From Candidatus Omnitrophota bacterium (GTDB taxonomy: Bacteria; Omnitrophota; Gorgyraeia; Zapsychrales; Fredricksoniimonadaceae), in contig JAUSEK010000015.1 of NCBI GenBank assembly GCA_030650275.1, positions 67,834 to 131,833 of the forward strand: a stretch of DNA of 64,000 nt, written 5' to 3'. The notes under the pieces are model-generated. The model was not told where the DNA came from. It was given only the letters and a program-made list of their open reading frames with translations, and searched no databases. The stretch's first letter is position 1. Each line of letters begins with the position of its first letter. The position numbers and the translations under genes are program-made. Shown piece after piece: positions 20,582-62,201 of this stretch.

Positions 20582-20656
20582 GGCGACGTAGCCAAGTGGT
20601 AAGGCAGTGGTCTGCAAAACCACTATTCAGCGGTTCGATTCCGCTCGTCGCCTCCA
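20582..20656 (+). tRNA. tRNA-Cys (GCA)
   Basis: GGCGACGTAGCCAAGTGGTAAGGCAGTGGTCTGCAAAACCACTATTCAGCGGTTCGATTCCGCTCGTCGCCTCCA. Anticodon loop CTGCAAA. Encoded CCA. Confidence 0.85.
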
Positions 20657-20662
20657 AAGATT

Positions 20663-20746
20663 GGGCGGGTGGCGGAACTGGAATACGCGCAGGACTTAAA
20701 ATCCTGTGGCCGTAAGGTCATGAGGGTTCAAGTCCCTCCCCGCCCA
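20663..20746 (+). tRNA. tRNA-Leu (TAA), long variable arm
   Basis: GGGCGGGTGGCGGAACTGGAATACGCGCAGGACTTAAAATCCTGTGGCCGTAAGGTCATGAGGGTTCAAGTCCCTCCCCGCCCA. Anticodon loop CTTAAAA. Confidence 0.8.
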
Positions 20747-20756
20747 TAAATGATCC

Positions 20757-20830
20757 GGACTCGTAGCTCAGTTGGTTAGAGCGTCACGTTGACATCGTGA
20801 AGGTCACAAGTTCGAGCCTTGTCGAGTCCA
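20757..20830 (+). tRNA. tRNA-Val (GAC)
   Basis: GGACTCGTAGCTCAGTTGGTTAGAGCGTCACGTTGACATCGTGAAGGTCACAAGTTCGAGCCTTGTCGAGTCCA. Anticodon loop TTGACAT. Confidence 0.8.
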
Positions 20831-46323: not shown

Positions 46324-47772
46324 TTATGGATGGATGAGGGACATTCCTTTGACGGCGGTGATGGCCGCGTCAAGGAAGGGGCCTTGGAAGATCCCGATGC
46401 CGACGATGCCGACGATGGCAACTCCGAGGACCAGGCGCATGGGCAAGGATACGGGGATGGGGGAAGTTGTGCGAGGCGCGTCAACATAAACGCGTTTGAC
46501 GACCATCAGGTAGTAGTAGGTTGAGATTACGATATTGACCACCGCAATGAGCGCCAGCCATACCAATCCGCTGTTGACCGCCGCCATCAGTAAGGTGAAT
46601 TTCCCGAAGAATCCGGCCAATGGCGGCACGCCTGCCAACGAGACCAGCGCCAAAAGCATGGTGCAGGCCAAAATGCCTGAACGCTTGGAAAGCCCCGCGT
46701 AATCTTCAATGTCATCGCCTTTTGCGGCAATGGAAAACAGGACAATGACCAGGAACGCCGCAAGATTCGTGAACAAATACCCCAACAGATAGAAATTGAT
46801 CGCCGACGCTCCAAGGATCGTTCCCGTGGCAGCACCCATGAGAAGATAACCGGCATGGCTGATGCTGGAATAGCCCAGCAATCTTTTGATATTCGTCTGG
46901 AACATGGCCACCAGATTGCCGTAGGTCATGGTGATGGCGGAAAGAACAGCCAGCATCAAACTCAACTCCATGTGCCAGGGAGCAAAGACGCCGAAGAAAA
47001 GGCGGATGAGGACCACGAATCCTGCGGCTTTGGACCCGACGGACAACAGGGCCGTCACCGGCGTCGGGGCGCCCTGATAGACATCCGGGACCCACATATG
47101 AAAAGGAACAGCCGCGATCTTGAAACCCACAGCCGCAAAAACGAGGACCAGGCCAAACGCCATCATGGGGGTCATGGCATGGGTGGCGGCAAACACCTGG
47201 ATGGCATCAAAGCGCGTGGAGTGGGTGACGCCATAGAGAAAACTCATGCCGTAGAGGAAGAAGCCCGACGACAAAGCGCCCAGGATCAAATATTTCATGC
47301 CCGCTTCAATGGAAAGTTTATCGCTTTTCAGATAAGCGGTCATGACGTACAGGGAAATGGTGAGTATTTCGATCGCAATAAAGAGCAAAAGGAAATCCGC
47401 GGAAGACGCAACAAGGCACATTCCGATCAACGTCAGCCACAATAATAAATAGAATTCGTTGCGCCGTCCCCCTAAGGACTTGAAGTATTGCTGGGTCATG
47501 ACAAAAACGAAGACCATGGCCAGCAGGAAGAACATTTTAAAAAACCAGGCCAGGGAATCCATCACAAACATCCCGCCGAACGTTGTTCCGGCGAGATCGT
47601 GCTGGGTGAGCCAGAAGGCAATGAGGCCGGAGAGGGCGATGAAACTTGAAATGCCGAGCCAGTCCTTTTGTGTATTTTTCGGCAACAAGATGTCCATCAC
47701 CATCAGGGCCGCGATGATCAGGGCGATGAGCAACTCCAATGAAATTAAGTTCCAGTCAATGACGGGGAACAT
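46324..47772 (-). CDS. nuoN: NADH-quinone oxidoreductase subunit N
   Basis: 482 aa. 14-TM antiporter-like. MFPVIDWNL start. Confidence 0.9.
   Translation of the reverse strand: MFPVIDWNLISLELLIALIIAALMVMDILLPKNTQKDWLGISSFIALSGLIAFWLTQHDLAGTTFGGMFVMDSLAWFFKMFFLLAMVFVFVMTQQYFKSLGGRRNEFYLLLWLTLIGMCLVASSADFLLLFIAIEILTISLYVMTAYLKSDKLSIEAGMKYLILGALSSGFFLYGMSFLYGVTHSTRFDAIQVFAATHAMTPMMAFGLVLVFAAVGFKIAAVPFHMWVPDVYQGAPTPVTALLSVGSKAAGFVVLIRLFFGVFAPWHMELSLMLAVLSAITMTYGNLVAMFQTNIKRLLGYSSISHAGYLLMGAATGTILGASAINFYLLGYLFTNLAAFLVIVLFSIAAKGDDIEDYAGLSKRSGILACTMLLALVSLAGVPPLAGFFGKFTLLMAAVNSGLVWLALIAVVNIVISTYYYLMVVKRVYVDAPRTTSPIPVSLPMRLVLGVAIVGIVGIGIFQGPFLDAAITAVKGMSLIHP
46361..46383. repeat. Direct repeat 2 (ATGGCCGCGTCAAGGAAGGGGCC), inside the nuoN 3' coding end
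   Basis: Partner of 45428-45450. 933 bp apart. Brackets higBA. Confidence 0.85.
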
Positions 47773-47800
47773 AGCGTTCTTTCATATTTTGTCACCCTTT

Positions 47801-47890
47801 TGTCATGCCCGAATGCTTCTGTCGGGCATCCAGTGCATTAGTGTCTGGACCCCCGACTAAAACATTCGGGGGTGACAAGCGGAATGACAT
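47801..47890 (+). repeat. Copy C of the multi-hairpin repeat, in the nuoM|nuoN spacer
   Basis: TGTCATGCCCGAATGCTTCTGTCGGGCATCCAG...GACCCCCGACTAAAACATTCGGGGGTGACA. Stem 1 carries paired T>G/A>C changes relative to copy A that preserve base-pairing. Confidence 0.85.
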
Positions 47891-49375
47891 TCAATATTTA
47901 ATACGACTACTCTCGACAATCGCTTTTGTGCTTGAGTCAATGTGATTCAAGATCAGCGACGGAAAACATCCGGCGAGGATCAATACGGCCAATAACAGCG
48001 CAAAGGGCAATTTTGCCAGAGGTGTTTGGGCATCCAACAGTTTGGAACAACGGGGATTCAGCGGCCCTTGGAAACCGAGGCGGATGGCTTTGAGCATATA
48101 AATGGCCGTGAGCACGACGCCCAGGACAGCCAGGACGGTATATAAACGGTATTGGTCCCACGCGCCTAAGAGGATCATGATCTCCGAGACAAAATTCGCG
48201 AATCCGGGTACGCCCGCGGAGGCGAGGGCTGCCATGGCAAAACACGTGGCCACAAACGGCATCTGTTTGGCCAGGCCGCCCCATTCATCCAAATTGCGGG
48301 TCCTGGTTTGATCGGCGATAAATCCGGTCAACGCGAAGGCGAGCGCCGCCATGATGCCGTGGGCGAACATCAAAAACACCACACCGTTAATGCCGATCAC
48401 ATTAAAACAGGCCAGGCCCAGCAGGATGTAGCCCATGTGGCTGCAGCTGGAATACCCCAAAATATATTTGAGGTCCCGCTGGGTCAGGGCGACTAATCCG
48501 CAGAAAAGGATATTGACGACGGCCAGGGCGGCGATGACGGGCATCCAGGTATGGGCGGCCTCGGGCATCAATTGAATGGCGAAGCGGATAATGGCATAAG
48601 CGCCCATTTTTTTGAGCACACCGGCGTGCAGCATGCTGATGGCTGTGGGCGCTTCCGCATACCCCACCGGAGCCCAGGTATAAAAAGGCCAGAGGGTCAG
48701 CGTTACGCCAAATCCGACGACGATCAGAGGGAAGACCCAGTTTTGAACGCTGATCGGCAAAGGATTGGCTGCTAAATACTGCTGGATTTGGACCAGATCA
48801 AATGTCTGCAAGCCGGTCGCAAGATATAAGGCAATGAGCCCGATCAGGGCCAGGGTCGCGCCGGCGATCAGATAAAGGGTCAATTTCATGGCGGCGTATT
48901 CACGACGCTCGGACCCCCAAATGGCGATCATTAAAAAGACCGGGATGGCCGCGACTTCGTGGAAGAAATAGAAAAAGAAAATATCCAGGGAGAGGAAGGC
49001 GCCGTAGGTGCCGATGACTGTGATCAATAAAAGGATGTAATATTCTTTGACCCGCTCCTTGATGGAGCCGCTGACGAGGAGGGCGGCGAAAGAAACGACC
49101 CCTAAGAGCAGCAAGAGCAGGGAATTGATCCCGTCGACCCCGACATGGTATGAGATGCCGAGCGGGGCGACCCAGGGGATTTTCTGAACGAATTGAAAAC
49201 CGCCTGCCGCGTGATCGTAAGCAGCCAACACCCAAACAGATAAAAGGAAAGGCAGAAGCACGGCAGCCGTAGAGATCCTGCGGATCGAAGAGGTCTTGTC
49301 AGACCCGACCATGAAAAGCAGGCCTAAGCCCGCCAAGGGCAGTAAAAGGATCCAGGAAAGATCAGGAACCATCAT
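47891..49375 (-). CDS. nuoM: NADH-quinone oxidoreductase subunit M
   Basis: 494 aa. Antiporter-like subunit. Confidence 0.9.
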   Translation of the reverse strand: MMVPDLSWILLLPLAGLGLLFMVGSDKTSSIRRISTAAVLLPFLLSVWVLAAYDHAAGGFQFVQKIPWVAPLGISYHVGVDGINSLLLLLLGVVSFAALLVSGSIKERVKEYYILLLITVIGTYGAFLSLDIFFFYFFHEVAAIPVFLMIAIWGSERREYAAMKLTLYLIAGATLALIGLIALYLATGLQTFDLVQIQQYLAANPLPISVQNWVFPLIVVGFGVTLTLWPFYTWAPVGYAEAPTAISMLHAGVLKKMGAYAIIRFAIQLMPEAAHTWMPVIAALAVVNILFCGLVALTQRDLKYILGYSSCSHMGYILLGLACFNVIGINGVVFLMFAHGIMAALAFALTGFIADQTRTRNLDEWGGLAKQMPFVATCFAMAALASAGVPGFANFVSEIMILLGAWDQYRLYTVLAVLGVVLTAIYMLKAIRLGFQGPLNPRCSKLLDAQTPLAKLPFALLLAVLILAGCFPSLILNHIDSSTKAIVESSRIKY

Positions 49376-51237
49376 AATTGTATGACCAGCGCAAAAAACA
49401 GGGCAATGACGCCCAGAACAAAAATCAAAGCATAGAATTGGACCAGACCGGTTTGCAGATAGCGAAGGGTCCTGCCGCCGGCTTTTGCCGCAGCTGTCAG
49501 GCCATGAACTCCGAAGCCCACAATGAAAGTTTTTTCAAACCACGATAAAAGGACGGCAAAGCTTTGCTGGACGCGGTCCACATACCACCCGTAGACAACG
49601 TCAAAATAGTATTTATTTTTTAAAACAGAATAGAAGGATCCGAGTTTTGTTTCCAGCGGGTCGCGGCTGGGGTGCTTGCTGTAGATCATATACGAGAGCC
49701 CTAACCCTAACACGGCAACCAAGGAAGAGATTAAAGCGACCCTCATATTAAGTCCTTCGTGCGCTTCCTGCGGATACAGGAAGTTGGGAATACCGATAAA
49801 ACCTCCGACGACCGAAAGAATGGCTAAAAAGATCAAAGGGTAGGTCATCACCGCCGGGGACTCATGGGCGTGATCAGACGCGGCGGGCTTGCCCTGAGCA
49901 ACGTCGAAGGGCTTGCTCCAAAAGGCGGTCCAGAACAGGCGGCCCATGTAAAAAGCAGTCAACAGCGACGTGACCGTCGCCATCCAATAGAGCAGGACAT
50001 TGTGTTGTGATGCCAGGGCCAGGATCTCGTCCTTGCTCCAAAAACCGCTTAAAGGAAAGATACCGCACAAAGCGAGCGTTCCGATCATGAAGGTGACGCC
50101 GGTGATGGGCATTTTTGCCAAAAGCCCGCGCATGTTCCAGATATTCTGCTCGTGATGAAGAGCACAGAGCACGCTACCGGCACCCAAAAAGAGCAGGGCC
50201 TTGAAAAAGGCATGGGTCGTTAAATGATACATGCCTTGCATGGGGCCGGACAAGCCCAAAGCCATGACCATCAGACCCAATTGGCTAAGCGTTGAATAGG
50301 CGAGGATGCGCTTAATATCATTTTCAACAATGGCGAGGGTCGCGGCCAACAGCGCCGTGATCCCGCCGACATAGGCAATGACGGTGAGCGCCGCGGTCAA
50401 GGGCTCAAAAATAAAGAACGTGCGCGCCAACAGATAAATACCTGCCGCCACCATCGTTGCCGCGTGAATGAGCGCGCTGACGGGCGTGGGGCCCTCCATA
50501 GCATCCGGCAGCCACACGTGCAAGGGGACCTGGGCGGATTTACCGACGACACCGCAGAACAGCAGCAATGCGGCCACCATCAGCAGATGAGGGTCTAAAT
50601 GAGGAACAGCCCGGGCCAGGTCCGTAAAAACAAAACTGCGGCCGTGGCCGATATCGGAGATGCTCCACAACAAAAGGATCCCGCAGAGAAATCCAAAATC
50701 CGCAAAGCGATTGACCATGAACGCCTTGACCCCGGCATCCGCGGCAGAGGGCTTGTGATACCAGAAACCGATGAGCAGATAGGAGCTTAAGCCCACCAGT
50801 TCCCAGGAGATGAACAGTTGAATCAAGTTGTTGGCCAGGACAATGCCTGTCATGGAGAAGGCGAACAAACTCAAGAACGCGAAGAACCTGGGGCTGCCCG
50901 GGTCCTCGGCCATATAGCCCCTGGAATAGATAAAAATGGCGCTGCCCACACCGGTGACGACCAAAAGCATCATGACCGCCAGCGGATTGACGAGAAATCC
51001 GAAGTCAATGGTCAGCGTGTCAAGCCGTATCCATGTCAGGGACTGCTGGAATTCAACGGGGGGATGGGATTGGAATATTTGTGCCGCGACTAAAATCGTA
51101 CAAACAAAAGAAATGAGGATGCCGGCAATGGCTAATAATGAACTCCATGTTTTAGAACGCAGGAAAAAAAGGGTAATGAGGACACAGGCGGTTAGCGGCG
51201 CAAAATACGCTATCCAAACCAAGGACGGGTCTACCAT
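49372..51237 (-). CDS. nuoL: NADH-quinone oxidoreductase subunit L
   Basis: 621 aa. Antiporter-like with C-terminal long helix extension. Confidence 0.9.
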   Translation of the reverse strand: MVDPSLVWIAYFAPLTACVLITLFFLRSKTWSSLLAIAGILISFVCTILVAAQIFQSHPPVEFQQSLTWIRLDTLTIDFGFLVNPLAVMMLLVVTGVGSAIFIYSRGYMAEDPGSPRFFAFLSLFAFSMTGIVLANNLIQLFISWELVGLSSYLLIGFWYHKPSAADAGVKAFMVNRFADFGFLCGILLLWSISDIGHGRSFVFTDLARAVPHLDPHLLMVAALLLFCGVVGKSAQVPLHVWLPDAMEGPTPVSALIHAATMVAAGIYLLARTFFIFEPLTAALTVIAYVGGITALLAATLAIVENDIKRILAYSTLSQLGLMVMALGLSGPMQGMYHLTTHAFFKALLFLGAGSVLCALHHEQNIWNMRGLLAKMPITGVTFMIGTLALCGIFPLSGFWSKDEILALASQHNVLLYWMATVTSLLTAFYMGRLFWTAFWSKPFDVAQGKPAASDHAHESPAVMTYPLIFLAILSVVGGFIGIPNFLYPQEAHEGLNMRVALISSLVAVLGLGLSYMIYSKHPSRDPLETKLGSFYSVLKNKYYFDVVYGWYVDRVQQSFAVLLSWFEKTFIVGFGVHGLTAAAKAGGRTLRYLQTGLVQFYALIFVLGVIALFFALVIQL

Positions 51238-51533
51238 TTCATTTCCTTCAATTCATCGGCCTGGATCGTGGCAAGGCGGCGGTACATCAGGACAATGATG
51301 GCAAGCCCTATGGCGACTTCCGCGGCGGCGACAAGAATGACAAAAAAGACGATCAATTGTCCGGCATAATCCCCGTTGAATTTGGAAAAGGCGACAAAAA
51401 CAAGGTTTGAAGCGGCCAAAAGAAGTTCCAGGGACAAGAGGACCTTGAGCACGTTGCGGCTTGTGATGACGCCCACAATACCGACGGAGAAGACAATGCC
51501 GCTCAAGAGGAGATAGTGTCCAAGCCCGATCAT
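51231..51533 (-). CDS. nuoK: NADH-quinone oxidoreductase subunit K
   Basis: 100 aa. 3 TM. Confidence 0.85.
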   Translation of the reverse strand: MIGLGHYLLLSGIVFSVGIVGVITSRNVLKVLLSLELLLAASNLVFVAFSKFNGDYAGQLIVFFVILVAAAEVAIGLAIIVLMYRRLATIQADELKEMKW

Positions 51534-52051
51534 TGGTTCCCCGCTTCCTTGCCCGTATTGAATGCTCCCTGGGCCAATGAAACGATCCCGAAGATCGCGA
51601 TCAGCAGAAGAAGCGATGTCAATTCAAAGGGAAGCAGATAATCCGTAAAGAGGACCCTGCCGATGGTTTCAATGGTCCCGCGGACCGAAGAAGGGCCCAT
51701 GGTCTGGGCCGCGATGAAACTTTTGACGGCCAAAAAGAATGAGGAGGCGAACATGAGCCCGACAACCCCTCCAAGCAACCGAAAACGGCTTTGTTGGACC
51801 GATGTGATCGTGGCCGCGTTAAGGTTCAGGCACATGACCACAAACAGGAAGAAAACGAGGACCGCCCCCGCGTAGACCAATATCAGGATGATCCCGACAA
51901 AAAAGGCCTCTAAAAGGACAAAAAGAGAAGACAGGGCAAAGATGGCGACGACCAGGGCCAGGACATTGTAGAGGGGGTTTCGCGCCAGAATGACGGCAAG
52001 GCTTGCCAGGACCAAAACAGCCGCAAAGAGATAAAAGAAAAGGGCAGGCAT
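51530..52051 (-). CDS. nuoJ: NADH-quinone oxidoreductase subunit J
   Basis: 173 aa. 5 TM. Confidence 0.8.
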   Translation of the reverse strand: MPALFFYLFAAVLVLASLAVILARNPLYNVLALVVAIFALSSLFVLLEAFFVGIILILVYAGAVLVFFLFVVMCLNLNAATITSVQQSRFRLLGGVVGLMFASSFFLAVKSFIAAQTMGPSSVRGTIETIGRVLFTDYLLPFELTSLLLLIAIFGIVSLAQGAFNTGKEAGNQ

Positions 52052-52132
52052 ATGCTCAATATAGAAATAACCGTCATATTGTCAAGAATATTGTGCTATT
52101 GTTGTATTTTTTCAGCGGATAGAGAGAAAATT

Positions 52133-52177
52133 TGTCATTCCCGAAAGTTTCTGTCGGGAATCCAGACAAGGAACCCC
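52133..52177 (+). repeat. Partial copy D (first hairpin only) of the multi-hairpin repeat, upstream of nuoJ at the island boundary
   Basis: TGTCATTCCCGAAAGTTTCTGTCGGGAATCCAGACAAGGAACCCC. Confidence 0.75.
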
Positions 52178-52245
52178 ATGTATTGGATCCCTGACACAAT
52201 TACAATTGCCATCAAAGGATCAGATGTTATAATGTGTGACAAAAT

Positions 52246-52449
52246 GTGAGGAATATTATGACCAAAATTCCAGAAGTTTACACCGTCGCAGAAGTAGCGC
52301 GGGCTTTAAAACTTAATCCGTATACTATACGGCGTCTTGTGCGTGAAAAGAAAATCCCAGCCATCAAAATCGGCGGGCATTGGCGGTTTAGGAAGGGTGA
52401 CATCAACCGTTTGCTGGCTAACCCCAGAAAAAGAAAGATGAAGCAATGA
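52246..52449 (+). CDS. Excisionase/AlpA-type helix-turn-helix DNA-binding protein
   Basis: 67 aa. YTVAEVARALKLNPYTIRRLVREKKIPAIKIGGHWRFRKGDI is the classic HTH_17/Xis signature. Stop overlaps the start of the next gene (ATGA). Confidence 0.75.
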   Translation: MRNIMTKIPEVYTVAEVARALKLNPYTIRRLVREKKIPAIKIGGHWRFRKGDINRLLANPRKRKMKQ

Positions 52450-55400
52450 GTACAGATTTAACATTTTTTACTAATGAAAAGGGACGTACCCTTCTTGATC
52501 GATTTAAAATTACTTTGGCGAATAACACTAAGTTTTTTGATGTGTTGGTTGGATACTTCAGAACTAGCGGTTTTTATCACTTGTACCAGTCGCTTGAGAA
52601 AGTCGAAAAGATTCGGATTTTAGTCGGGATCAACGTAAATAAACAGACACACGATCTATTGATTGAGGCGAAAGAGCAGCAGTTGGCGCTCGCGTTTTCC
52701 CATAAAGAAACAAAGGACGCGTTTGCGGATGAAGTCGCCCGGGAAATGGAGGAGTCGGAAGATAATGCGGAAACAGAGATTGGCGTCCAGAAGTTCATTG
52801 AATTCATAAAAAATGGCAAGCTTGAAATTCGCGCGTATCCTTCGCAGGATATTCACGCCAAGGTTTATATCATTCGTAAAGATCAATCTAAGAGTGAAGA
52901 TTTTGGTCGGGTGATCACTGGTTCAAGCAATTTTTCGTATGCAGGCCTCCATGAAAATCTTGAGTTTAACGTTGAGTTGAAGGATAGCAGGGATGTAAAG
53001 TTTGCTTTGGAGAAGTTTGAGGATCTCTGGAAGGATTCAGTTGATATTTCAGAGAAATATATTGAGACGGTTAACACAAGAACATGGCTCAATGATGCGA
53101 TTTCCCCACATGATCTGTACTTGAAATTTTTATACGAGTACTTTAAGGATGAATTAAATCAGTCCGACGAAGTTTTCTATCGCTATCTACCCATCGAATT
53201 CAAAAAATTTGAATATCAAGAGCAGGCAGTTCTTAACGCCAAAAAGATCCTTGAAGAGTATGGTGGTGTCTTCATCTCAGACGTAGTTGGCCTTGGGAAA
53301 ACATATATTTCAGCAATGCTTGCCAGCCAGCTTGATGGCAGAACCTTGGTCATAGCACCGCCTATTTTGCTTGAGAAAAATAATCCCGGCTCTTGGCCTA
53401 ATGTTTTTGATGACTTCCGGGTTCACGCGCACTTTGAGTCGATTGGTAAATTGGACGCCCTTGTCGAAGCTGGGACTGATAAATTTACGAATATTATTAT
53501 TGATGAAGCCCACCGGTTCCGTACTGAGAGCAACATGACCTATGAAAAATTGGCTGAGGTATGCCGTGGCAAGCGGGTTATTCTCGTTACAGCCACACCT
53601 TACAATAACTCACCCAAGGATATTTTAAGTCAAATTAAGTTGTTCCAAAAAGCGAGAAAAAGCACAATTCCAAACCTCCCCGATTTGGAGAAGTTTTTTA
53701 ACGGCCTTGATAGGCGATTAAAGGTTTTGGATCGTCAGCGAGATTATTCGGAATATATTAAGACCGTTAAGGAAAACGCCAGAGAGATCCGGGAAAAGGT
53801 GTTGAAGTATTTAATGGTTCGTCGCACCCGTTCAGAGATTATAAAATACTTTGGTGAGGATTTGGCAAAGCATAAACTCAAATTTCCCGATGTCGAGAAA
53901 CCAGAGCCACTTTTTTATGAACTTAATGATGAGGAAGATTTGGTATTCAGTCGAACTATTGAGTTGATCGCTCATAAATTTAAATACGCCCGCTACACTC
54001 CGATGCTTTATTACAAAGGGGAAGTGTCTCAACCAGAGAAATTATCCCAAAGAAACATGGGAAAATTTATGAAGATTCTGATGGTCAAACGGTTGGAGAG
54101 TAGTTTTTTTGCTTTTAGAAATACCCTTGATCGTTTTATTTATTCCTATGAGCAATTCATTAAAGAATTTGACGGTGGCAACGTCTATGTGAGCAAAAAA
54201 CACAGCAACAAAGTATTTGAGTTTTTGGAAAACGATGATGACGCGGCTGTTCAGCGCCTTATTGATGAAGGTAAGGCGGAGAAGTTTAAGAGTGGTGATT
54301 TCAAAGAAGGGTTGCTAAAAGATTTAAAGAGTGATCTGGATATATTAAAAGAAATTCATAAAATTTGGAGCACGGTTAAACGAGATCCGAAGCTATTGGC
54401 TTTTCTTGACCGGCTTGCCAGCAATCAAATCCTAAAGAAAAATAAACTCATCATTTTTACGGAATCCAAAGAAACGGCTGAATATTTAGCAAAAAATATT
54501 GAGATTAAATTTCCCAATACCACGCTTTGTTTTACTGGGGCATCAGGCGAGGTTATCCGCGAGAAGGTGATTGATAACTTTGATGCGAAAGTTAAACATC
54601 CAAAGGACGATTACCGGATTTTAGTATCAACAGAGGTTCTCTCCGAAGGTGTTAACTTGCATCGATCCAATGTGGTTATCAATTATGATATTCCATGGAA
54701 TCCTACCCGGATGATGCAAAGAGTTGGCCGCGTCAATCGAGTTGATACTAAATTTGACGTAATTTATACGTTCACCTTTTTCCCCACCAAACAAGCTAAC
54801 GATCAGATTAAGCTCAGAGAAGCGGCCGAGGCCAAGATTAATGCGTTTATCTCCATGCTTGGATCCGATGCTCGTCTTCTAACCGAAGGAGAGCCCATAG
54901 AACAGCATGAGCTATTTAATCGGTTAACTTCTAAGAGGACTATTACCGGTGAAGATGACGGCGAAGAGAGCGAATTGAAGTATCTGTATGTTATTAAGAC
55001 TATTCGGGATCAAGATCCGGAGATGTTTGAGAAAATCAAGCGGCTCCCCAGAAAATCAAGAACCGCGCGAGCCAACGGTGAAAAAGTTAATTCACTACTG
55101 ACATATTTTAGACGTGGAAAGATCGAGAAATTTTTTATTGCGGGGGGTAACGAGAAATCGCAGGAACTTGACTTTATGTCAGCAGCTAAAACTTTAGAGA
55201 GTGGGAAAGATGCCCCTAAAGGCAAGATTGATAACAAGAATTTTTATGAGCTTTTAGCTCAGAATAAACAGGCGTTTATTTATGCCACCACCGAGGAGTT
55301 GCCCGAGGTTAAATTGCGGGGCGGCCGGGATAGCGCGACGCAAGTCCTTAGGATTATAAAGGCCACCTTAAAAGACAGTAGGCAATTTACTGATGACCAG

Positions 55401-55643
55401 GAGTATTACCTTAAAAAAGTTCGCACACAATTGGAAGAGGGCGCTCTACCTAAGCAGACAACCAAGAAAACACTTCAGGCCTTAAATGATGAGCTTAAAA
55501 AGGGAGTTAATCCCCTGCGAATCCTCGCCCGTTTACAGGCAAATATACCGGCGAAGCTTCTCGAGGGACATTTTGTTGAAGATCATGCGCAAGTATTTGG
55601 AAAAAGAGAAGTCATATTATCGGAATATTTAATCGCCGGATAA
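52446..55643 (+). CDS. PLD-family nuclease domain fused to SNF2-family helicase
   Basis: 1065 aa. N-terminal single HKD motif (IHAKVYIIRKD...VITGSSNFSYAGLHENLEFNVEL). Walker A VVGLGKTY. DEAH (IIIDEAHRFR). Helicase-C motifs (LVSTEVLSEGVNLH, QRVGRVNRV). The frame is intact. Confidence 0.8.
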   Translation: MSTDLTFFTNEKGRTLLDRFKITLANNTKFFDVLVGYFRTSGFYHLYQSLEKVEKIRILVGINVNKQTHDLLIEAKEQQLALAFSHKETKDAFADEVAREMEESEDNAETEIGVQKFIEFIKNGKLEIRAYPSQDIHAKVYIIRKDQSKSEDFGRVITGSSNFSYAGLHENLEFNVELKDSRDVKFALEKFEDLWKDSVDISEKYIETVNTRTWLNDAISPHDLYLKFLYEYFKDELNQSDEVFYRYLPIEFKKFEYQEQAVLNAKKILEEYGGVFISDVVGLGKTYISAMLASQLDGRTLVIAPPILLEKNNPGSWPNVFDDFRVHAHFESIGKLDALVEAGTDKFTNIIIDEAHRFRTESNMTYEKLAEVCRGKRVILVTATPYNNSPKDILSQIKLFQKARKSTIPNLPDLEKFFNGLDRRLKVLDRQRDYSEYIKTVKENAREIREKVLKYLMVRRTRSEIIKYFGEDLAKHKLKFPDVEKPEPLFYELNDEEDLVFSRTIELIAHKFKYARYTPMLYYKGEVSQPEKLSQRNMGKFMKILMVKRLESSFFAFRNTLDRFIYSYEQFIKEFDGGNVYVSKKHSNKVFEFLENDDDAAVQRLIDEGKAEKFKSGDFKEGLLKDLKSDLDILKEIHKIWSTVKRDPKLLAFLDRLASNQILKKNKLIIFTESKETAEYLAKNIEIKFPNTTLCFTGASGEVIREKVIDNFDAKVKHPKDDYRILVSTEVLSEGVNLHRSNVVINYDIPWNPTRMMQRVGRVNRVDTKFDVIYTFTFFPTKQANDQIKLREAAEAKINAFISMLGSDARLLTEGEPIEQHELFNRLTSKRTITGEDDGEESELKYLYVIKTIRDQDPEMFEKIKRLPRKSRTARANGEKVNSLLTYFRRGKIEKFFIAGGNEKSQELDFMSAAKTLESGKDAPKGKIDNKNFYELLAQNKQAFIYATTEELPEVKLRGGRDSATQVLRIIKATLKDSRQFTDDQEYYLKKVRTQLEEGALPKQTTKKTLQALNDELKKGVNPLRILARLQANIPAKLLEGHFVEDHAQVFGKREVILSEYLIAG

Positions 55644-55646
55644 TGT

Positions 55647-58600
55647 ATGGATAAAAATACAAGCCACAAAATTATTAAGGATACTTTGGAAAGAGCATTT
55701 GATAAAAATAAATTTTTTCTATTTGCAAAGAATCTCTGCAATCAGATTGATGAATCAAAGGCATTTCAGTTAAGTGGGGCTTATATCCCAGATGCATTTC
55801 GCGGATACGTTAAGTCATATGAACGGCTTGGAACTTTTACCGACCCGGAAGATAAGAAGATAGATGTCTTGATTGTCTATCTTCAAAAGAAAACTTCTTT
55901 GGAGAGGGCCCGCACCGCACAGCGCAATTTCGTTGCTCGCTATCTCAAAGATCGTGATCAAAAAGATGCTGGTCTGGTTGCTTTCGTTTCCCCAAACTCG
56001 GAGGATTGGCGGTTTTCCCTGATCAAAATGGAGTACAAGTTTACCGAGGGGAAATCCGGGAAGGTAAAGGTCAAAGAAGAATTCACCCCGGCGCGTAGAT
56101 GGTCTTTCCTTGTCGGGGCTAATGAAAACAGCCACACAGCCAAGAGTCGTTTGGCCCCGATCGTTCAGGATGATGAGCATAACCCTACCCTGAATTTTTT
56201 TGAAGAAGCATTCAATATTGAAAAAGTCACAAAAGAGTTCTTTGAGAAATATCGTGACCTGTTTTTGCGGGTTAAAGAAACTCTCGATGATGTGGTTAAA
56301 CAAGACCCGAAGATCAAGAAAGATTTTATTGCTAAGGGCGTGGATACTGTTGACTTTGCAAAGAAGCTACTCGGGCAGATTGTTTTTCTTTATTTTTTAC
56401 AAAAAAAAGGTTGGTTCGGTGTCGAACGCGATGCAGATTGGGGTTCCGGGCCTAAAAATTTTTTACGTCAACTCTTTGATAAAAAACACAGCGATTATAG
56501 GAACTTTTTTAACGATATTTTAGAACCGTTATTTTATGAAGCCCTTGCCCGTGAACGAGATCATGATTTTTACAGTCGCTTCAACTGTAAAATTCCTTTT
56601 TTAAACGGCGGTCTATTTGATCCAATCAATAATTATGACTGGGTTCATACTGATGTTCTTTTACCCGACGATTTATTCTCGAATGAAAGGAAAACTAAAG
56701 AAGGCGATATTGGTGACGGTATTTTAGATATTTTTGACCGGTATAATTTTACAGTTAAAGAAGATGAGCCACTTGAAAAGGAAGTGGCCATTGATCCTGA
56801 AGTGTTAGGAAAAATATTTGAAAAGCTTGGAGCGATAACGCCAAGTAGATTTAATGAATGGGCAGAAGCAGTCCGTTCCGGGGAAAAGAGCAAGGAGCAG
56901 GAGGCTAATAAAAAATTGGGAGTTTATTATACTCCTCGTGAAATTGTTCACTACATGTGTGTGCAAAGTTTAGTTAATTATTTAGATATGGAACTTCATG
57001 GGAAGGTTTTACAAGAAGATCTGGAAAAATTTATTAAGTATGGAGAGATGGCCGTTGAGCACGAAGCGCTATATGCTGAAAAGATTGAACAGAATCCGGA
57101 TTATAAAGGGAGATACGCCAAACCCAAATTGCCAGTTAGCATTGAACAAAACGCAGAAATAATTGATAGATCTTTAGCCAACATTAAAGTTTGCGACCCT
57201 GCTATTGGTTCGGGTGCTTTCCCAGTAGGCATGATGACAGAGATTGTTCGCAATCGGAATACGCTTTCAAGTTATCTTAAGGATCCAAGTCGTACGATTT
57301 ATAATTTCAAACGTGATTGTATTCAAAATTCGCTTTATGGTGTGGACATTGACCGGGTGCTGTTGAAATCGCCAAGCTTCGTTTGTGGCTGTCGCTTGTT
57401 GTGGATGAGGACGACATTAAGCAGATTAAGCCGTTACCAAATTTGGACTACAAGATAATGCAGGGCAATAGCTTGTCGGAAGAGTTTGAGGGTGTAAAGC
57501 TGTTTGATGACAAGCTAATTTTTGCTGTTAATTTCGATAAGGAAAAACAGGTTGAAGATCTCAAGGAAAAACAGAACACTCTATCGAGTGAGTATATTAA
57601 ACTTCATCAGGATAATAAACTGACCAATATAAGGAAAGAGGAGATAAAAGTAGAACTAAAGAAAATAAATAATCAGATTAAGAGCCTCAACCAGTCTGGG
57701 AAGAAGGCTCATGACGATACTGGGTTGTTTGATGTTTTCAGCAATGCAAAGAAGAAAGCGGACGAGTTAAAGCGCCTGCATAAAGAATTCTTTGAGACGA
57801 CCCAAAAGAAGGATGATCTTAAGAAACAGATTGAAAAGCTCGAATGGGATCTTATTGAGGCTACCCTTAAGGAACAAGGGAAAAATTCAGAGCTTAAAAA
57901 ACTTGAGGAGTTTAAGAAGACAAATACAAAACCTTTTTTTCTTTGGAAGCTCCACTTTGCCGATGTATTTGAAGAGAAGGGCGGTTTCGATGTTGTAATT
58001 GCGAATCCACCGTATATTAAAGAAGATGTGAATAGACATGCCTTTGACGGGCTGAGAAAGTCGGATTGTTATCAGGGTAAAATGGACATATGGTATTTGT
58101 TTGGTTCTGAAGGGTTGGATATTTTGAGAAATCATGGGGTAATGACATTTATTGCTACAAATAATTGGGTTACGAACGATGGTGCATCTAAGTTTAGAAA
58201 TAAAATAATTAAGTATGGCCGTATTATTGATTTTATTGATTTTGGAGATTATAAAATTTTTTCTGCGGGAATCCAAACAATGGTTTTTGTAGTTCTTAAG
58301 GATAACGAATCACCAGAATATGATTTGAAGTATGCCAAGCTACTTGATAATAATGCCGACGGAACGTTGTTAACAAGTTTTTTAAATGAACCCCATGAAT
58401 TATTAAATCATCGATTTGAGAAATTTAAAGTTTCAATTAGAAGATCCTCCTATTTAGAAGGTTATATTAAATTTATCCACCCCACCATTGGCAGGATATT
58501 AGATAGGATAAAGAGTGCAGGTTGTTTTAATTTAATGGATCACGAAATATTTAGTGGGATTGATGTAATGCAGGATTTTGTCGCCAAATCACATTTGGAA

Positions 58601-59329
58601 AAGCTGAATGGAAAAATTGGTGTTGGTGATGGTGTTTTTGTCTTAAGTGAAATAGAAAAAACACGAATCAAATGGAGCAACAAGGAATTAAATTTAATAA
58701 AACCATATTATACGACTCGGGAAATCGCAAGATATTATGCCAATAAATCCAATAGGCATTGGATTGTTTATACCGGGGCTGACGCTAACGATAAAATTAG
58801 CCTTTATCCAAATATAAAAAAACACTTAGATAAATTTAAAAAAATAATTACATCTGTAAATAAACCATATGGTTTACACAGAACCCGTGATGAAGAAAAT
58901 TTTCTTGGTCAAAAAATATTTTCTATTCGTAAATGTGCAATACCATCCTTTTCCTTGGTAAATTTTCCGTGCTATGTGTCTAGGGCATTCTTGATTATTA
59001 AGACAAACAGAATTGATTTTAAATATCTCCTGGCGATCTTGAATTCTAAAGTCACTGTTTTTTGGTTACTGCATAAGGGGAAGCTCCAAGGAAATCAATT
59101 TCAGGTAGATAAGGTACCATTGATGGATATCCCAATAGTATGCGGTCAACCTTCTAATCAAAAGCCCATAATTGATCTTGCGGATAAGATTTTATCATTG
59201 GCTCAGGATAACAAACAGACGCAAGATAAAATAAAAGAATACGAGCGTCAAATTGATCAAATGGTCTATGCGCTTTATGGCCTGACGGACGAGGAGATTA
59301 AGATCGTTGAGGAAAGTGTGGGTAAATGA
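55647..59329 (+). pseudogene. Gamma-class N6-adenine DNA methyltransferase (PglX/DrmMI/type IIG-like, ~1230 aa) disrupted by a -1 frameshift at ~57353
   Basis: ORF 55647-57458 carries the conserved N-terminal region (KIPFLNGGLFDP) and motif I (VCDPAIGSGAFPV...YGVDIDR). ORF 57383-59329 continues with AVEIAKLRLWLSLVVDE...NLDYKIMQGNSL, motif IV VVIANPPYIKE, and the C-terminal target-recognition region ending QMVYALYGLTDEEIKIVEES. The frames join if GACCGGG is read as GACCCGGG. Confidence 0.8.
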
Positions 59330-59946
59330 TAATAAAGATGGAAGAAGATACAAGATACCAGAAAGCGATACAAAGAAATATTGATTCGATTTTTCATGCT
59401 TTGTGGGAGTGGAAAACGATAGAAGCCTTTGAGCAATATGTAGAAGGAAAAAGGATCTATGTTTTAGGCCAAAATTTTTTTAAAATAATGCCGGTTGCCT
59501 TTTTTGGTGACATGTTAAGAAACGCCATTAATGTGCTTGATAAACACAGTGATGTCGCTTCATTTTGGTATATTCTAGAAGTAGGCGAAATTAAATCGTT
59601 AGAGATATATTCAGAACAAAAAATTGATTCTTTGAAAGATTTGGCTGGGAAATTAAAACACATTCGTGATAAAGTTTTTTTTCATCATGATAAGAATGGT
59701 GTTTTAGATACAAAGAAAATTTGGAAAGAAGCCGACATTGTAGGGAAAGATGTTGGCGAGGCCATTCAATATTTATTTTCTATATTGAAAGAGTTATATG
59801 AAAAGGTCATGAAAAAACAATATCACTCCGATCCTGATAATAGCATTGGGGAAGATTTCGTTAAACTATTAAATTTTGCAGCAGAAAATGGTTTTATTGA
59901 GGTTCGTTCGGAGAATTTTCGGGGACGTCTTCGAGTCTGTGGGTAG
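59326..59946 (+). CDS. Hypothetical protein, translationally coupled to the methyltransferase
   Basis: 206 aa. No recognisable motif. ATGA overlap with the upstream stop. Confidence 0.45.
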   Translation: MIIKMEEDTRYQKAIQRNIDSIFHALWEWKTIEAFEQYVEGKRIYVLGQNFFKIMPVAFFGDMLRNAINVLDKHSDVASFWYILEVGEIKSLEIYSEQKIDSLKDLAGKLKHIRDKVFFHHDKNGVLDTKKIWKEADIVGKDVGEAIQYLFSILKELYEKVMKKQYHSDPDNSIGEDFVKLLNFAAENGFIEVRSENFRGRLRVCG

Positions 59947-59983: not shown

Positions 59984-60817
59984 ATGGCACAAAAATTCTA
60001 TGAAAAAGCATCAGTTCAAGTAGCAATAGTTGCGGGTATTTTTTCGTTGCTTTACTGCGGAATAACTATCTGGAACGATCGATCACAATTAAAACAAGAC
60101 AATCAAAATTATGTTCGAGAATTGATTCAAAAAGACAGTCGCATTGCAAGCTTAGAGCGAGAGATCCAACGATTAGAAATTCAACTCGTACCTTTAAAAA
60201 TAGTCTCGCTGGAAGGGCAATCTTTTATATTTAATGTTGCTAAGATTTCACAGTTAGGAGATTTGTCATCTTGGCATAATAAGTATGGCGGCCAACGACA
60301 AAGCTATGAGGAATTATTATCTTGGGGAAAAAAAGAAAATAGTTCCGAAATAAAGAAAAAGATTTCTGTCGAGACAGAAAGACTAGAAGAAATTTATGAC
60401 CCACGTATTATGATACCAACCATAGAACAGCCTATTTCTATATGTAAATTTATAACTCAGCCAAATATTCCTGCTTGTGCTTGGGGGCTCGAACCGCCTA
60501 CAGGTTACGATGCAAAAAATGTATTTCATCATCTGACTGAAAGGATATGGACTGAACGCGCCAGAGCCGCCTGTCTATTAAGGAATATAAGGACATCGCA
60601 GTATAAAGATCAAATAGACAAAGAAAAGCTTTTTGACACTCTCGTATCTCTCATGAAAGAAGAAAATGAAAAGAGCTTATTTGTTAGCAAAATGGCTCTA
60701 AATACCTATAGCGAATTGACGGGATTTTCACCTTCTGGCGTGTTTGATTTTGATGGCGCGATTAATGATTGGAAAAGCATGGAAAGAAAAAAAGAAATTT
60801 TAAAAATAAACTTCTGA
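59984..60817 (+). CDS. Hypothetical membrane-anchored coiled-coil protein
   Basis: 277 aa. One N-terminal TM (VAIVAGIFSLLYCGITIW) then coiled-coil (ELIQKDSRIASLEREIQRLEIQL). No known domain. Confidence 0.4.
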   Translation: MAQKFYEKASVQVAIVAGIFSLLYCGITIWNDRSQLKQDNQNYVRELIQKDSRIASLEREIQRLEIQLVPLKIVSLEGQSFIFNVAKISQLGDLSSWHNKYGGQRQSYEELLSWGKKENSSEIKKKISVETERLEEIYDPRIMIPTIEQPISICKFITQPNIPACAWGLEPPTGYDAKNVFHHLTERIWTERARAACLLRNIRTSQYKDQIDKEKLFDTLVSLMKEENEKSLFVSKMALNTYSELTGFSPSGVFDFDGAINDWKSMERKKEILKINF

Positions 60818-60947: not shown

Positions 60948-62201
60948 GTGAAAACAATGTCATTGAAATCAATCGGTTTTGGTGAATCGACGACTGTCGA
61001 ATGGAAGCCATCGCTGTCGCAGATCCATGAGATCATCGAAAGCATAACAGCTTTTGCTAATACCGAGGGTGGACGATTGTTTGTAGGCATATCGAAGACT
61101 GGAGAGGGCATAGGTGTTCAGATTGGTAAAGGTACGGTAGAAGGTCTGGTTAATCGTATCGCTCAACATACTGATCCGAAAATCCAGCCGAAGATCACGG
61201 TCAAAAAGATTAAAGGCAAACAGGTTATTGTTATTGAAGTCAAACAGTCCAAGGATAGATTGGTCCTGGCCGATGGCCGGCCATATAAGCGTGTGGGGCC
61301 TTCGACCCGGCAAATGGGCAAGGATGAATACGAAGGGCTGATCCTGGAGAAACATAAGGGTAAACACTATTTTGATGAGCAGATCTGTGATGGCGCAAAG
61401 ATCTCGGATGTCAGCAGAGAAAAGCTTTTGGCATTTATTAAAGAAGCTAAACGGGAAAGGGGCTTAAGCATTGCTGAGGGTTTGTCGGTGACGGATATTT
61501 TGCGAAAGCTTAAACTCGTAAAGAATGACAAGCTAACCAATGGAGCTATTTTGTTGTTTGGTAAAGACACACAGAATTTCTTTTTACAATCTGAGCTAAA
61601 AGCGGTTCGATTTAAGGGCTTAGATGAAACCAGACCCATGCTTGATTTTAAAACGATTGGCGGGGATGCGATCACGCTTCTTAAAAAGGCTGAAGGTTTT
61701 ATTTATGACCATATCCCGATGAGGGCATGGATACAACCTGGGAAACTACAACGTCAGGAAAAATGGCTGTATCCGGAGGAAGCTATAAGAGAGGCTTTGG
61801 CCAATGCTTTGGCGCATAGAGACTACAGTAGTCCGGGCAAGGTTCAGGTGAGGATCTTTGATGATCGCTTGGAGATATGGAATCCGGGGCTTTTACCGCC
61901 ACCATTAACACTGGAGAAGTTAAAAGGAAAACATGATTCAGTTCCGCGCAATCCGCTTATTGCCAAGGCGTTTTTCTGGATCAAATATGCTGAAGATGTT
62001 GGATCGGGGACAAGCAAGATCATTCAGTGGTGTAAGGAGTGGGGATTGCCCGAGCCGACATATGAGGAAGCCGGGGCCAGTTTTGTGACGGTATTTCATA
62101 ATCCTAAGCCGGAGGATGGTGGTCAGCAAGGGGGCCAGAAACAGGGGCCAGAAACAGGGGCCAGAAAATTACCCCCAAACAAGCTATGGTTTTGGATTTG
62201 A
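60948..62201 (+). CDS. AlbA_2 (Schlafen-like) + HATPase_c_4 putative DNA-binding ATPase; C-terminal wHTH out of frame (62186-62362)
   Basis: 417 aa. N-terminal ESTTVEWKPSL...AFANTEGGRLFVGI (AlbA_2/divergent AAA). C-terminal HATPase_c_4-like (IREALANALAHRDY). The winged-helix segment expected for this family (MVLDLIRRNPLISRHDIASKLEINDSVVRKHLDALKAKGVLKRVG) is encoded immediately downstream in another frame. Confidence 0.6.
   Translation: MKTMSLKSIGFGESTTVEWKPSLSQIHEIIESITAFANTEGGRLFVGISKTGEGIGVQIGKGTVEGLVNRIAQHTDPKIQPKITVKKIKGKQVIVIEVKQSKDRLVLADGRPYKRVGPSTRQMGKDEYEGLILEKHKGKHYFDEQICDGAKISDVSREKLLAFIKEAKRERGLSIAEGLSVTDILRKLKLVKNDKLTNGAILLFGKDTQNFFLQSELKAVRFKGLDETRPMLDFKTIGGDAITLLKKAEGFIYDHIPMRAWIQPGKLQRQEKWLYPEEAIREALANALAHRDYSSPGKVQVRIFDDRLEIWNPGLLPPPLTLEKLKGKHDSVPRNPLIAKAFFWIKYAEDVGSGTSKIIQWCKEWGLPEPTYEEAGASFVTVFHNPKPEDGGQQGGQKQGPETGARKLPPNKLWFWI
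62130..62168. repeat. 13-bp tandem repeat (GGGGCCAGAAACA x ~3) at the frame break of the AlbA_2 gene
   Basis: Seen directly: gggggccagaaacaggggccagaaacaggggccagaaaa. Confidence 0.85.

Follow-up and report, generated by a model that had tools for sequence, protein, structure and literature searches.

A single-base deletion splits the methyltransferase gene of a PLD-SNF2 restriction-like cassette in Candidatus Omnitrophota and probably disarms it

Results

We analyzed a 64,000-nucleotide stretch of DNA from a Candidatus Omnitrophota bacterium (assembly GCA_030650275.1, contig JAUSEK010000015.1, forward-strand positions 67,834 to 131,833). This whole stretch is called the window here, and coordinates count from its first letter. 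Two overlapping open reading frames (ORFs), 55647-57458 and 57383-59329, lie downstream of a gene for a PLD (HKD) nuclease fused to a SNF2-type SF2 ATPase. An earlier note on this DNA, made from the sequence alone, had proposed that the two ORFs were one Eco57I/PglX-type methyltransferase gene split by the loss of a single C, and had offered three readings of that loss, namely an inactivating mutation, a sequencing error and an on/off switch. We confirmed that the ORFs are the halves of one Eco57I-type adenine methyltransferase gene. In our judgment the split is likely to be an ordinary and recent loss-of-function deletion that disarms the whole cassette and does not make it toxic.

The two open reading frames belong to one gene

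The Pfam Eco57I profile (PF07669) matched the restored protein end to end over the junction (profile positions 1-171, residues 561-872, 117.6 bits). The 3' ORF alone scored 86.4 bits with this profile, and the 5' ORF had no Pfam match. The PADLOC profile PDLC03596, labelled 'Type IIG restriction enzyme-methyltransferase', scored the restored protein at 944 bits and the two fragments at 791 (ORF1) and 114 bits. The 5' part encodes a conserved domain of about 450 aa at the N-terminus, then motif I (DPAIGSGAF, residues 517-525, 57195-57221), which is invariant in the homolog alignment, and the sequence YGVDID (residues 564-569). The NPPY motif is found at 58004-58015 in the -1 frame. NPPY after motif I in the same chain is the mark of a gamma-class N6-adenine methyltransferase; this order is absent from the translated chain and present in the restored sequence only.

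Around the junction (57336-57380), the window reads TAT GGT GTG GAC ATT GAC CGG GTG CTG TTG AAA TCG CCA AGC TTC in the frame of the first ORF. This frame encodes YGVDID followed by RVLLKSPSFVCGCRLLWMRTTLSRLSRYQIWTTR*, beginning with RVLLKSPSF, and ends 34 codons on with a TAA at 57456-57458, for a product of 603 aa. The -1 frame has a TGA at 57350-57352, continues as CCG GGT GCT GTT GAA ATC GCC AAG CTT (PGAVEIAKLRLWLSLVVDEDD), and then stays open to 59329. The second ORF had been listed with a TTG start, giving 648 aa. From 57353 to 59329, the authentic frame contains the terminal stop only, in 659 codons, and the other two frames contain 46 and 89 stops. Addition of one C after 57353 produced a single ORF of 1227 aa, in good agreement with the roughly 1230 aa predicted in the earlier note.

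The closest three relatives with readable DNA carry GAC CCT GGT (L002), GAC CCC GGT (L007) and GAC CCG AGC (L003) at the same codons, and all are in frame. The tract now present in the window is the short CC GGG (57353-57357). Since the relatives are in frame at these codons, the lesion is best described as one C lost from a CCC run, exactly at the GACCGGG where it had been placed before. The ancestral CCC at 57353 is thus deduced from relatives.

No related locus is split at the same site

We fetched 166 homologous loci, 6 by exact-protein look-up and 80 each from GTDB species representatives and JGI metagenomes. The methyltransferase gene was intact in 135 and disrupted in 12 of them, so that about 8% of homologous loci are affected. 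More than 90% of the judgeable loci encode one protein of about 1000-1300 aa. Among the first 86 loci, 81 crossed the junction in one tblastn segment, and the other five were contig ends or an N gap. A split at the site of the window gene occurred in none of about 160 related loci, which argues against a conserved two-ORF arrangement. The stable two-ORF arrangement that the earlier note had wished to see checked against orthologs was therefore not borne out, as the orthologs are intact here.

The disruptions examined in homologs lie elsewhere. Among them are two nonsense codons (residues 70 and 773), changes of frame (residues 605-694 and near residue 1100) and several truncations. Locus L083 (9660-9790) has a duplicated, GC-rich and MITE/REP-like element of about 55 nt inserted at methyltransferase residue 548. 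In L057 (9647-10413), 766 nt are inserted at residues 543-552 with the frame left open, and this locus was scored as intact. Two candidates for a frameshift at the same site were rejected. The 599-aa ORF of L099 results from a break further downstream, at residues 604-693, and L035 is uninformative due to an 'NN' gap at the junction. In the latter locus (1800-1810, Dehalococcoidia UBA5629), the 'NN' stands for about 12 nt exactly at the frameshift codons (DID-NN-EIAKL) and is probably a scaffolding or masking gap.

Larger protein collections gave the same picture of a long single chain. In a search of 5.8 billion proteins, the 120 best matches were all long single proteins, most of them 1050-1300 aa in length. 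A search of 1.84 billion cluster representatives (50% identity clusters) with the N-terminal 569 aa as the query returned 1462 clusters at E <= 1e-30, and 136 of the 150 best cluster representatives were at least 1000 aa long.

The frameshift affects the most conserved stretch, judged by alignment

In the truncated product, residues 570-603 (PGAVEIAKLRLWLSLVVDEDDIKQIKPLPNLDYK) are swapped for unrelated sequence. These residues have a mean identity of 92% over about 158 loci and rank second by conservation among the 1193 possible 34-aa windows; first is the same stretch with a one-residue shift. Judged from this alignment, the frameshift strikes the most conserved stretch of the methyltransferase. 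The truncated product retains motif I and the N-terminal domain (about 450 aa). Missing from it are the helix that follows strand beta-2, motif III, the catalytic NPPY motif and the entire recognition domain.

The remainder of the gene is flawless. An alignment of 113 homologs has 194 columns with a conservation of at least 97%, 35 of them downstream of the lesion, and the restored methyltransferase did not deviate at any of these columns. The PLD::SNF2 protein, by the same threshold, showed 0 deviations at 270 columns (107 homologs) and has all its motifs, in line with the earlier statement that this gene is intact. The flawless state of both the gene and its partner suggests that the lesion is either very recent or not real. 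Going by this lack of decay, the deletion event appears to be recent.

Genuine deletion, artefact or switch

A sequencing error had been one of the three original readings. In its broader form, the missing C would be a consensus artefact or a partial truth, and the organism, or much of its population, would carry CCC. The source is a metagenome-assembled genome, so that its sequence is a population consensus, the gene is otherwise without any deviation at conserved columns, and the sole other sequence with the 2-C allele stems from the same sequencing run. This other sequence is provided by Logan contigs of run SRR13727527, which come from a different, k-mer-based assembler. Such contigs encode, without any change, both the truncated product of 603 aa and the NuoL protein of the window. 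Two independently built contigs of 3315 and 6847 nt correspond to window positions 54951-58265 and 47849-54695, with 100% identity and no gaps, the 2-C form included. Agreement at every base over 10.1 kb indicates accurate reads and makes a polishing error or a noisy-read homopolymer error unlikely. Moreover, a run of two or three bases is not a context in which short-read indel errors would be expected. Genuine-looking lesions, nonsense codons and insertions among them, are present in about 8% of the homologous loci, which gives a genuine lesion a prior no lower than that of an assembly indel, and we weighted the genuine deletion above the artefact. Altogether, we consider that the deletion is probably genuine. 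The error reading is weakened by the Logan contigs and is still compatible with the data; an artefact, or a mixed population, is an unlikely explanation of the 2-C form.

The third original reading, an on/off switch, fared worse. Reversible phase variation, or expression via programmed -1 ribosomal frameshifting, has in its favor that a -1 shift at 57353-57356 would rebuild the conserved protein exactly and that the two frames overlap by 105 nt. Phase variation of mod genes is well documented for Type I and Type III systems. However, the tract is merely C2/G3, Tandem Repeats Finder detected no repeat there, and homopolymers of six or more are absent from the site. The gene was therefore rejected as a phasevarion-type mod gene, as it has no hypermutable simple-sequence repeat at the switch point. 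Programmed -1 frameshifting was rejected as well, for want of a slippery heptamer, a stimulatory structure and a conserved layout: the heptamer C_CGG_GTG is outside the X_XXY_YYZ form, the 126 nt downstream of the site folded no better than shuffled sequences (z = +0.64), and the two-frame layout was seen in 0 of the approximately 160 related loci. We regard a switch or recoding as largely refuted and as highly improbable. The inactivating mutation is thus the best supported of the three readings, with the 2-C form in an independent assembly and sporadic disruption in the family on its side.

Consequences for the partner nuclease

The earlier note had expected an active nuclease-helicase to be toxic next to a dead methyltransferase. 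The homologous loci speak against this expectation. The upstream gene is visible in 10 of the 12 loci with a disrupted methyltransferase, and the PLD-SNF2 ORF is uninterrupted in all 10. Eight of these SNF2 proteins could be aligned; all retain HxK, GSSN, Walker A, DEAH and motif VI, and their 1-9 deviations at conserved columns are comparable to those in the other loci (mean 4, median 2). Inactivation of the SNF2 gene together with the methyltransferase gene was observed in 0 of 10 loci, and the reverse state, a broken SNF2 gene with an intact methyltransferase gene, in at least 4. The absence of co-inactivation makes it unlikely that methyltransferase loss unleashes the nuclease.

Experiments on MANTIS, a system with a comparable effector, point in the same direction. 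Knockout of its methyltransferase MtsC is non-toxic and abolishes restriction, which needs MtsC (preprint 10.64898/2026.09.23.753747). A catalytically dead, targeting-competent MtsC, in contrast, is toxic unless the PLD nuclease is also mutated (10.64898/2026.09.23.753747). The lesion in the window resembles the MANTIS knockout, because the recognition domain is removed too. By this analogy, a dead methyltransferase next to a live nuclease is probably non-toxic here. We infer that the nuclease depends on the methyltransferase and that no residual function is left.

These observations can be combined into a probable mechanism. The intact cassette probably acts like a two-subunit, ATP-dependent restriction-modification (R-M) system of the Type ISP, Type III or MANTIS-like kind. 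Its methyltransferase/target-recognition domain (TRD) subunit would read and methylate a short sequence, and wherever that sequence is unmethylated would guide the PLD-SNF2 motor-nuclease to it. In the window gene, the CCC run became one C shorter, most likely by replication slippage, and translation ends after residue 569 plus 34 unrelated residues. Methylation would be lost, targeting would be lost with it, and restriction would then be lost as well. The cassette would be silently disarmed, leaving the cell's own genome unattacked.

A different outcome would be a stable two-subunit enzyme, in which a 3' half re-initiated at the TAATG joins the N-terminal fragment, or in which NPPY and the TRD alone target PLD-SNF2. 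Split methyltransferases exist elsewhere. The ORF1 stop overlaps an in-frame ATG, and this ATG was chosen as the start of the downstream gene by the gene caller on Logan contig L001. Re-initiation at 57456-57460 is possible, if unproven. On the other side, no Shine-Dalgarno-like sequence was found upstream of either candidate start of the 3' part, either product pair would miss no fewer than 10 (more likely 34) of the residues that the family conserves best, and no homolog is split here. In addition, a targeting-competent fragment that does not methylate should be toxic by the MANTIS result. A split enzyme is therefore a very unlikely outcome. We attach a similarly small probability to the more general view that the 2-C allele is not simply dead, be it as one state of a population toggle, as a source of cooperating fragments, or as part of a methylation-independent defence by PLD-SNF2 with the HEPN and Schlafen proteins.

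Several points weigh against a genuine deletion that silently disarms the cassette. Run SRR13727527 is almost certainly the same sample, so that a mixed population is still compatible with the Logan contigs, and bubble-popping in assembly would mask a 1-nt minority variant. Zero decay would equally mark a sequencing error. The census was drawn from metagenomic assemblies, and errors may account for some of the disruptions counted. A near-identical intact allele was not found, which is why the ancestral base had to be deduced from relatives: identity is 81% at most over the full length among the 5.8 billion proteins searched and 82% at most in JGI metagenomes, the N-terminal part reaches 92-93% at best, and neither the SNF2 protein nor the 57458-59329 product gave a match in exact look-ups. 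Finally, this exact two-gene family is uncharacterised in the literature searched, where we found no experimental study of the cassette and no mention of the accession SRR13727527, and the dependence of the nuclease rests on analogy.

The cassette and its genomic island

The split gene is part of a low-GC island of 10 kb (about 52.1-62.25 kb) that is flanked by nuoJ and an Mrp/ApbC gene; the GC content is 39% in the island and 53% elsewhere in the window. The features of the island are listed in Table 1.

Table 1. Features of the split methyltransferase gene and of the surrounding island (window coordinates).
Feature	Position	Strand	Remarks
Promoter-like site	52206..52233	+	TTGCCA, 16-nt spacer, TG-TATAAT; 11/12 consensus matches, extended -10; consensus match only
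HTH_17/MerR-like gene	52258..52449	+	PF12728, E = 1e-16; GAGGA 7 nt before ATG 52258
PLD (HKD) nuclease::SNF2-type SF2 ATPase	52446..55643	+	1065 aa, intact
Methyltransferase 5' part, original frame	55647..57353	+	Residues 1-569
Deletion site	57351..57357	+	GACCGGG where relatives carry GACCCNGG
Methyltransferase 3' part, -1 frame	57353..59329	+	PGAVEIAKL..., coiled-coil insert, NPPY, TaqI_C-like target-recognition region
Out-of-frame tail	57354..57458	+	34 unrelated codons + TAA
TAATG	57456..57460	+	Truncated-ORF stop overlaps in-frame ATG of 3' part
AbiU2-like HEPN gene	59326..59946	+	PF18734, 28.5 bits, just over cut-off; overlaps methyltransferase stop by 4 nt
277-aa gene	59984..60817	+	No significant family match
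Schlafen AlbA_2 + HATPase_c_4 gene	60948..62201	+	Island end

The PLD::SNF2 protein contains PLDc_2, ResIII, SNF2-rel_dom and Helicase_C domains, matches 'HKD+Snf2' in PADLOC, and has the motifs HAK (137-139), GSSN, GLGKT (282-286), DEAH (353-356) and QRVGRVNR. Its gene and the methyltransferase gene are 3 nt apart, and a PLD-SNF2 gene is found directly upstream of the methyltransferase gene in nearly all loci with upstream DNA present. The stop of the helix-turn-helix (HTH) gene overlaps the start of the SNF2 gene. A small HTH gene also precedes the cassette in L002, L007 and L168, and the complete trio of HTH, PLD::SNF2 and methyltransferase genes recurs in L002 and L007. The HTH_17 gene probably regulates the cassette and, by analogy, may encode a repressor like MtsR of MANTIS.

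The SNF2 protein of the window is 95-97% identical to those of L002, L007 and L070. The methyltransferases of the same three loci share 85-93% identity with that of the window in the N-terminal part, and their C-terminal recognition regions are unrelated. This pattern suggests, as far as alignments go, swapping of specificity domains on a conserved motor-nuclease.

The AbiU2-like HEPN gene probably encodes an accessory effector, and in general the genes that follow the methyltransferase are variable and probably encode accessory effectors. Early termination at 57458 could be polar on the trailing genes. In L002 and L003, the accessory slot is occupied by an AAA_13/SMC-like ATPase gene, and in L007 by a dCMP-deaminase-like gene. 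A gene with the AlbA_2/HATPase_c_4 architecture adjoins the methyltransferase homolog in L003 and L004.

At the borders of the island, neither an integrase nor a tRNA nor flanking direct repeats were found. In L003 and L007, the homologous cassettes have conjugation, relaxase and recombinase genes around them, indicating that the cassette, which is horizontally acquired, travels on mobile elements. In a related Omnitrophota genome, nuoJ is likewise the first gene of nuoJKLMN, with different upstream neighbours, which places the island upstream of nuoJ and outside the nuo operon.

Some further observations concern the surroundings. A perfect 13-nt tandem repeat (GGGGCCAGAAACA, 2.8 copies) at 62131-62167 coincides with the 3' end of the Schlafen/AlbA_2 gene and with the GC boundary of the island. 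The nuoJKLMN genes form a separate unit on the minus strand (46324-52051), and nuoA-I are not adjacent to it; in a related Omnitrophota metagenome-assembled genome (L169), nuoA-I lie downstream on the opposite strand. A tight tRNA cluster (Cys-GCA, Leu-TAA, Val-GAC) at 20582-20830 is unrelated to the lesion. As a check of assembly quality, four suspicious overlapping ORF pairs in the window were compared with NCBIfam, and no matches were obtained.

Comparison with known systems

The restored protein is like the Type IIG family in motif I, NPPY, a C-terminal TaqI_C-like recognition region and a length of about 1200 aa, and the REBASE/PADLOC Type IIG family has the Pfam domains Eco57I, MmeI_Mtase and TaqI_C. 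A classical Type IIG enzyme has an N-terminal PD-(D/E)XK domain of its own for cleavage and works by itself (PMC3874165). Unlike such self-contained enzymes, the family of the window gene is nearly always paired with an upstream PLD::SNF2 gene, and this strict pairing argues against a self-contained enzyme. The N-terminal 450 aa had no Pfam match to a nuclease domain. An AF2 model of residues 1-569 (pLDDT 80) has an alpha/beta domain at residues 1-175, and Foldseek comparison of the model with the PDB gave nothing below E = 0.2 (MmeI, 5hr4, E = 0.28). PDB sequence searches with the N-terminal domain returned methyltransferase-core or helicase-core relatives only. D73 of the methyltransferase is conserved, and no conserved (D/E/Q)xK follows it.

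Type ISP enzymes such as LlaGI and LlaBIII are single polypeptides with an Mrr nuclease, an SF2 translocase, a gamma-methyltransferase and a TRD; they work with an asymmetric site, hemimethylation and ATP-driven translocation (PMC3874165). The cassette has the same module order (nuclease, SF2 ATPase, gamma-methyltransferase, TRD) and would be expected, by analogy, to share this site, hemimethylation and translocation logic. It differs from Type ISP in consisting of two genes and in having a PLD/HKD nuclease instead of Mrr. No sequence-level match to LlaGI or LlaBIII was found among solved structures.

MANTIS (Gao_RL) and the Type-2 BREX-related systems likewise have a PLD and SF2-helicase effector, an N6-adenine methyltransferase and an HTH regulator, and are the nearest characterised relatives in logic. 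They require the DUF499 AAA+ ATPase (MtsA) and MtsB/DUF3780 (10.64898/2026.09.23.753747; PMC12839542). Neither a DUF499 ATPase nor MtsB/DUF3780 was found in the window island or beside the homologs in L002, L003 and L007, and membership in BREX or BREX-related/MANTIS systems was rejected because core genes are missing. Class 1 DISARM was represented by partial matches at the level of domains, with 112 bits for DrmD and 106 bits for DrmMI. Membership in this class was also rejected, as there is no DrmA, DrmB (DUF1998) or separate DrmC, and the PLD domain is fused to SNF2.

As regards the lesion itself, pseudogenised R-M genes generally show the same kind of event, a single-base indel in a short homopolymer of an acquired gene. 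Compared with other broken R-M genes, the window case is distinct only in its recency and in the position of the lesion in the most conserved segment.

Discussion

The split gene in the window is one more pseudogenised R-M gene, and the annotation should join both ORFs and mark the gene as frameshifted. For this gene family, the frameshift is an ordinary event, and the cassette family is more interesting than the single frameshift. The cassette of HTH, PLD::SNF2 and 'Type IIG-like' methyltransferase genes is very widespread, occurs in many phyla and is often found on mobile elements. Loci with a broken methyltransferase and an intact nuclease recur without inactivation of the nuclease, which suggests that the methyltransferase serves a split Type ISP-like enzyme as its targeting subunit, and that it is no self-contained enzyme of Type IIG. 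If so, the cassette family is probably mislabelled as Type IIG in databases.

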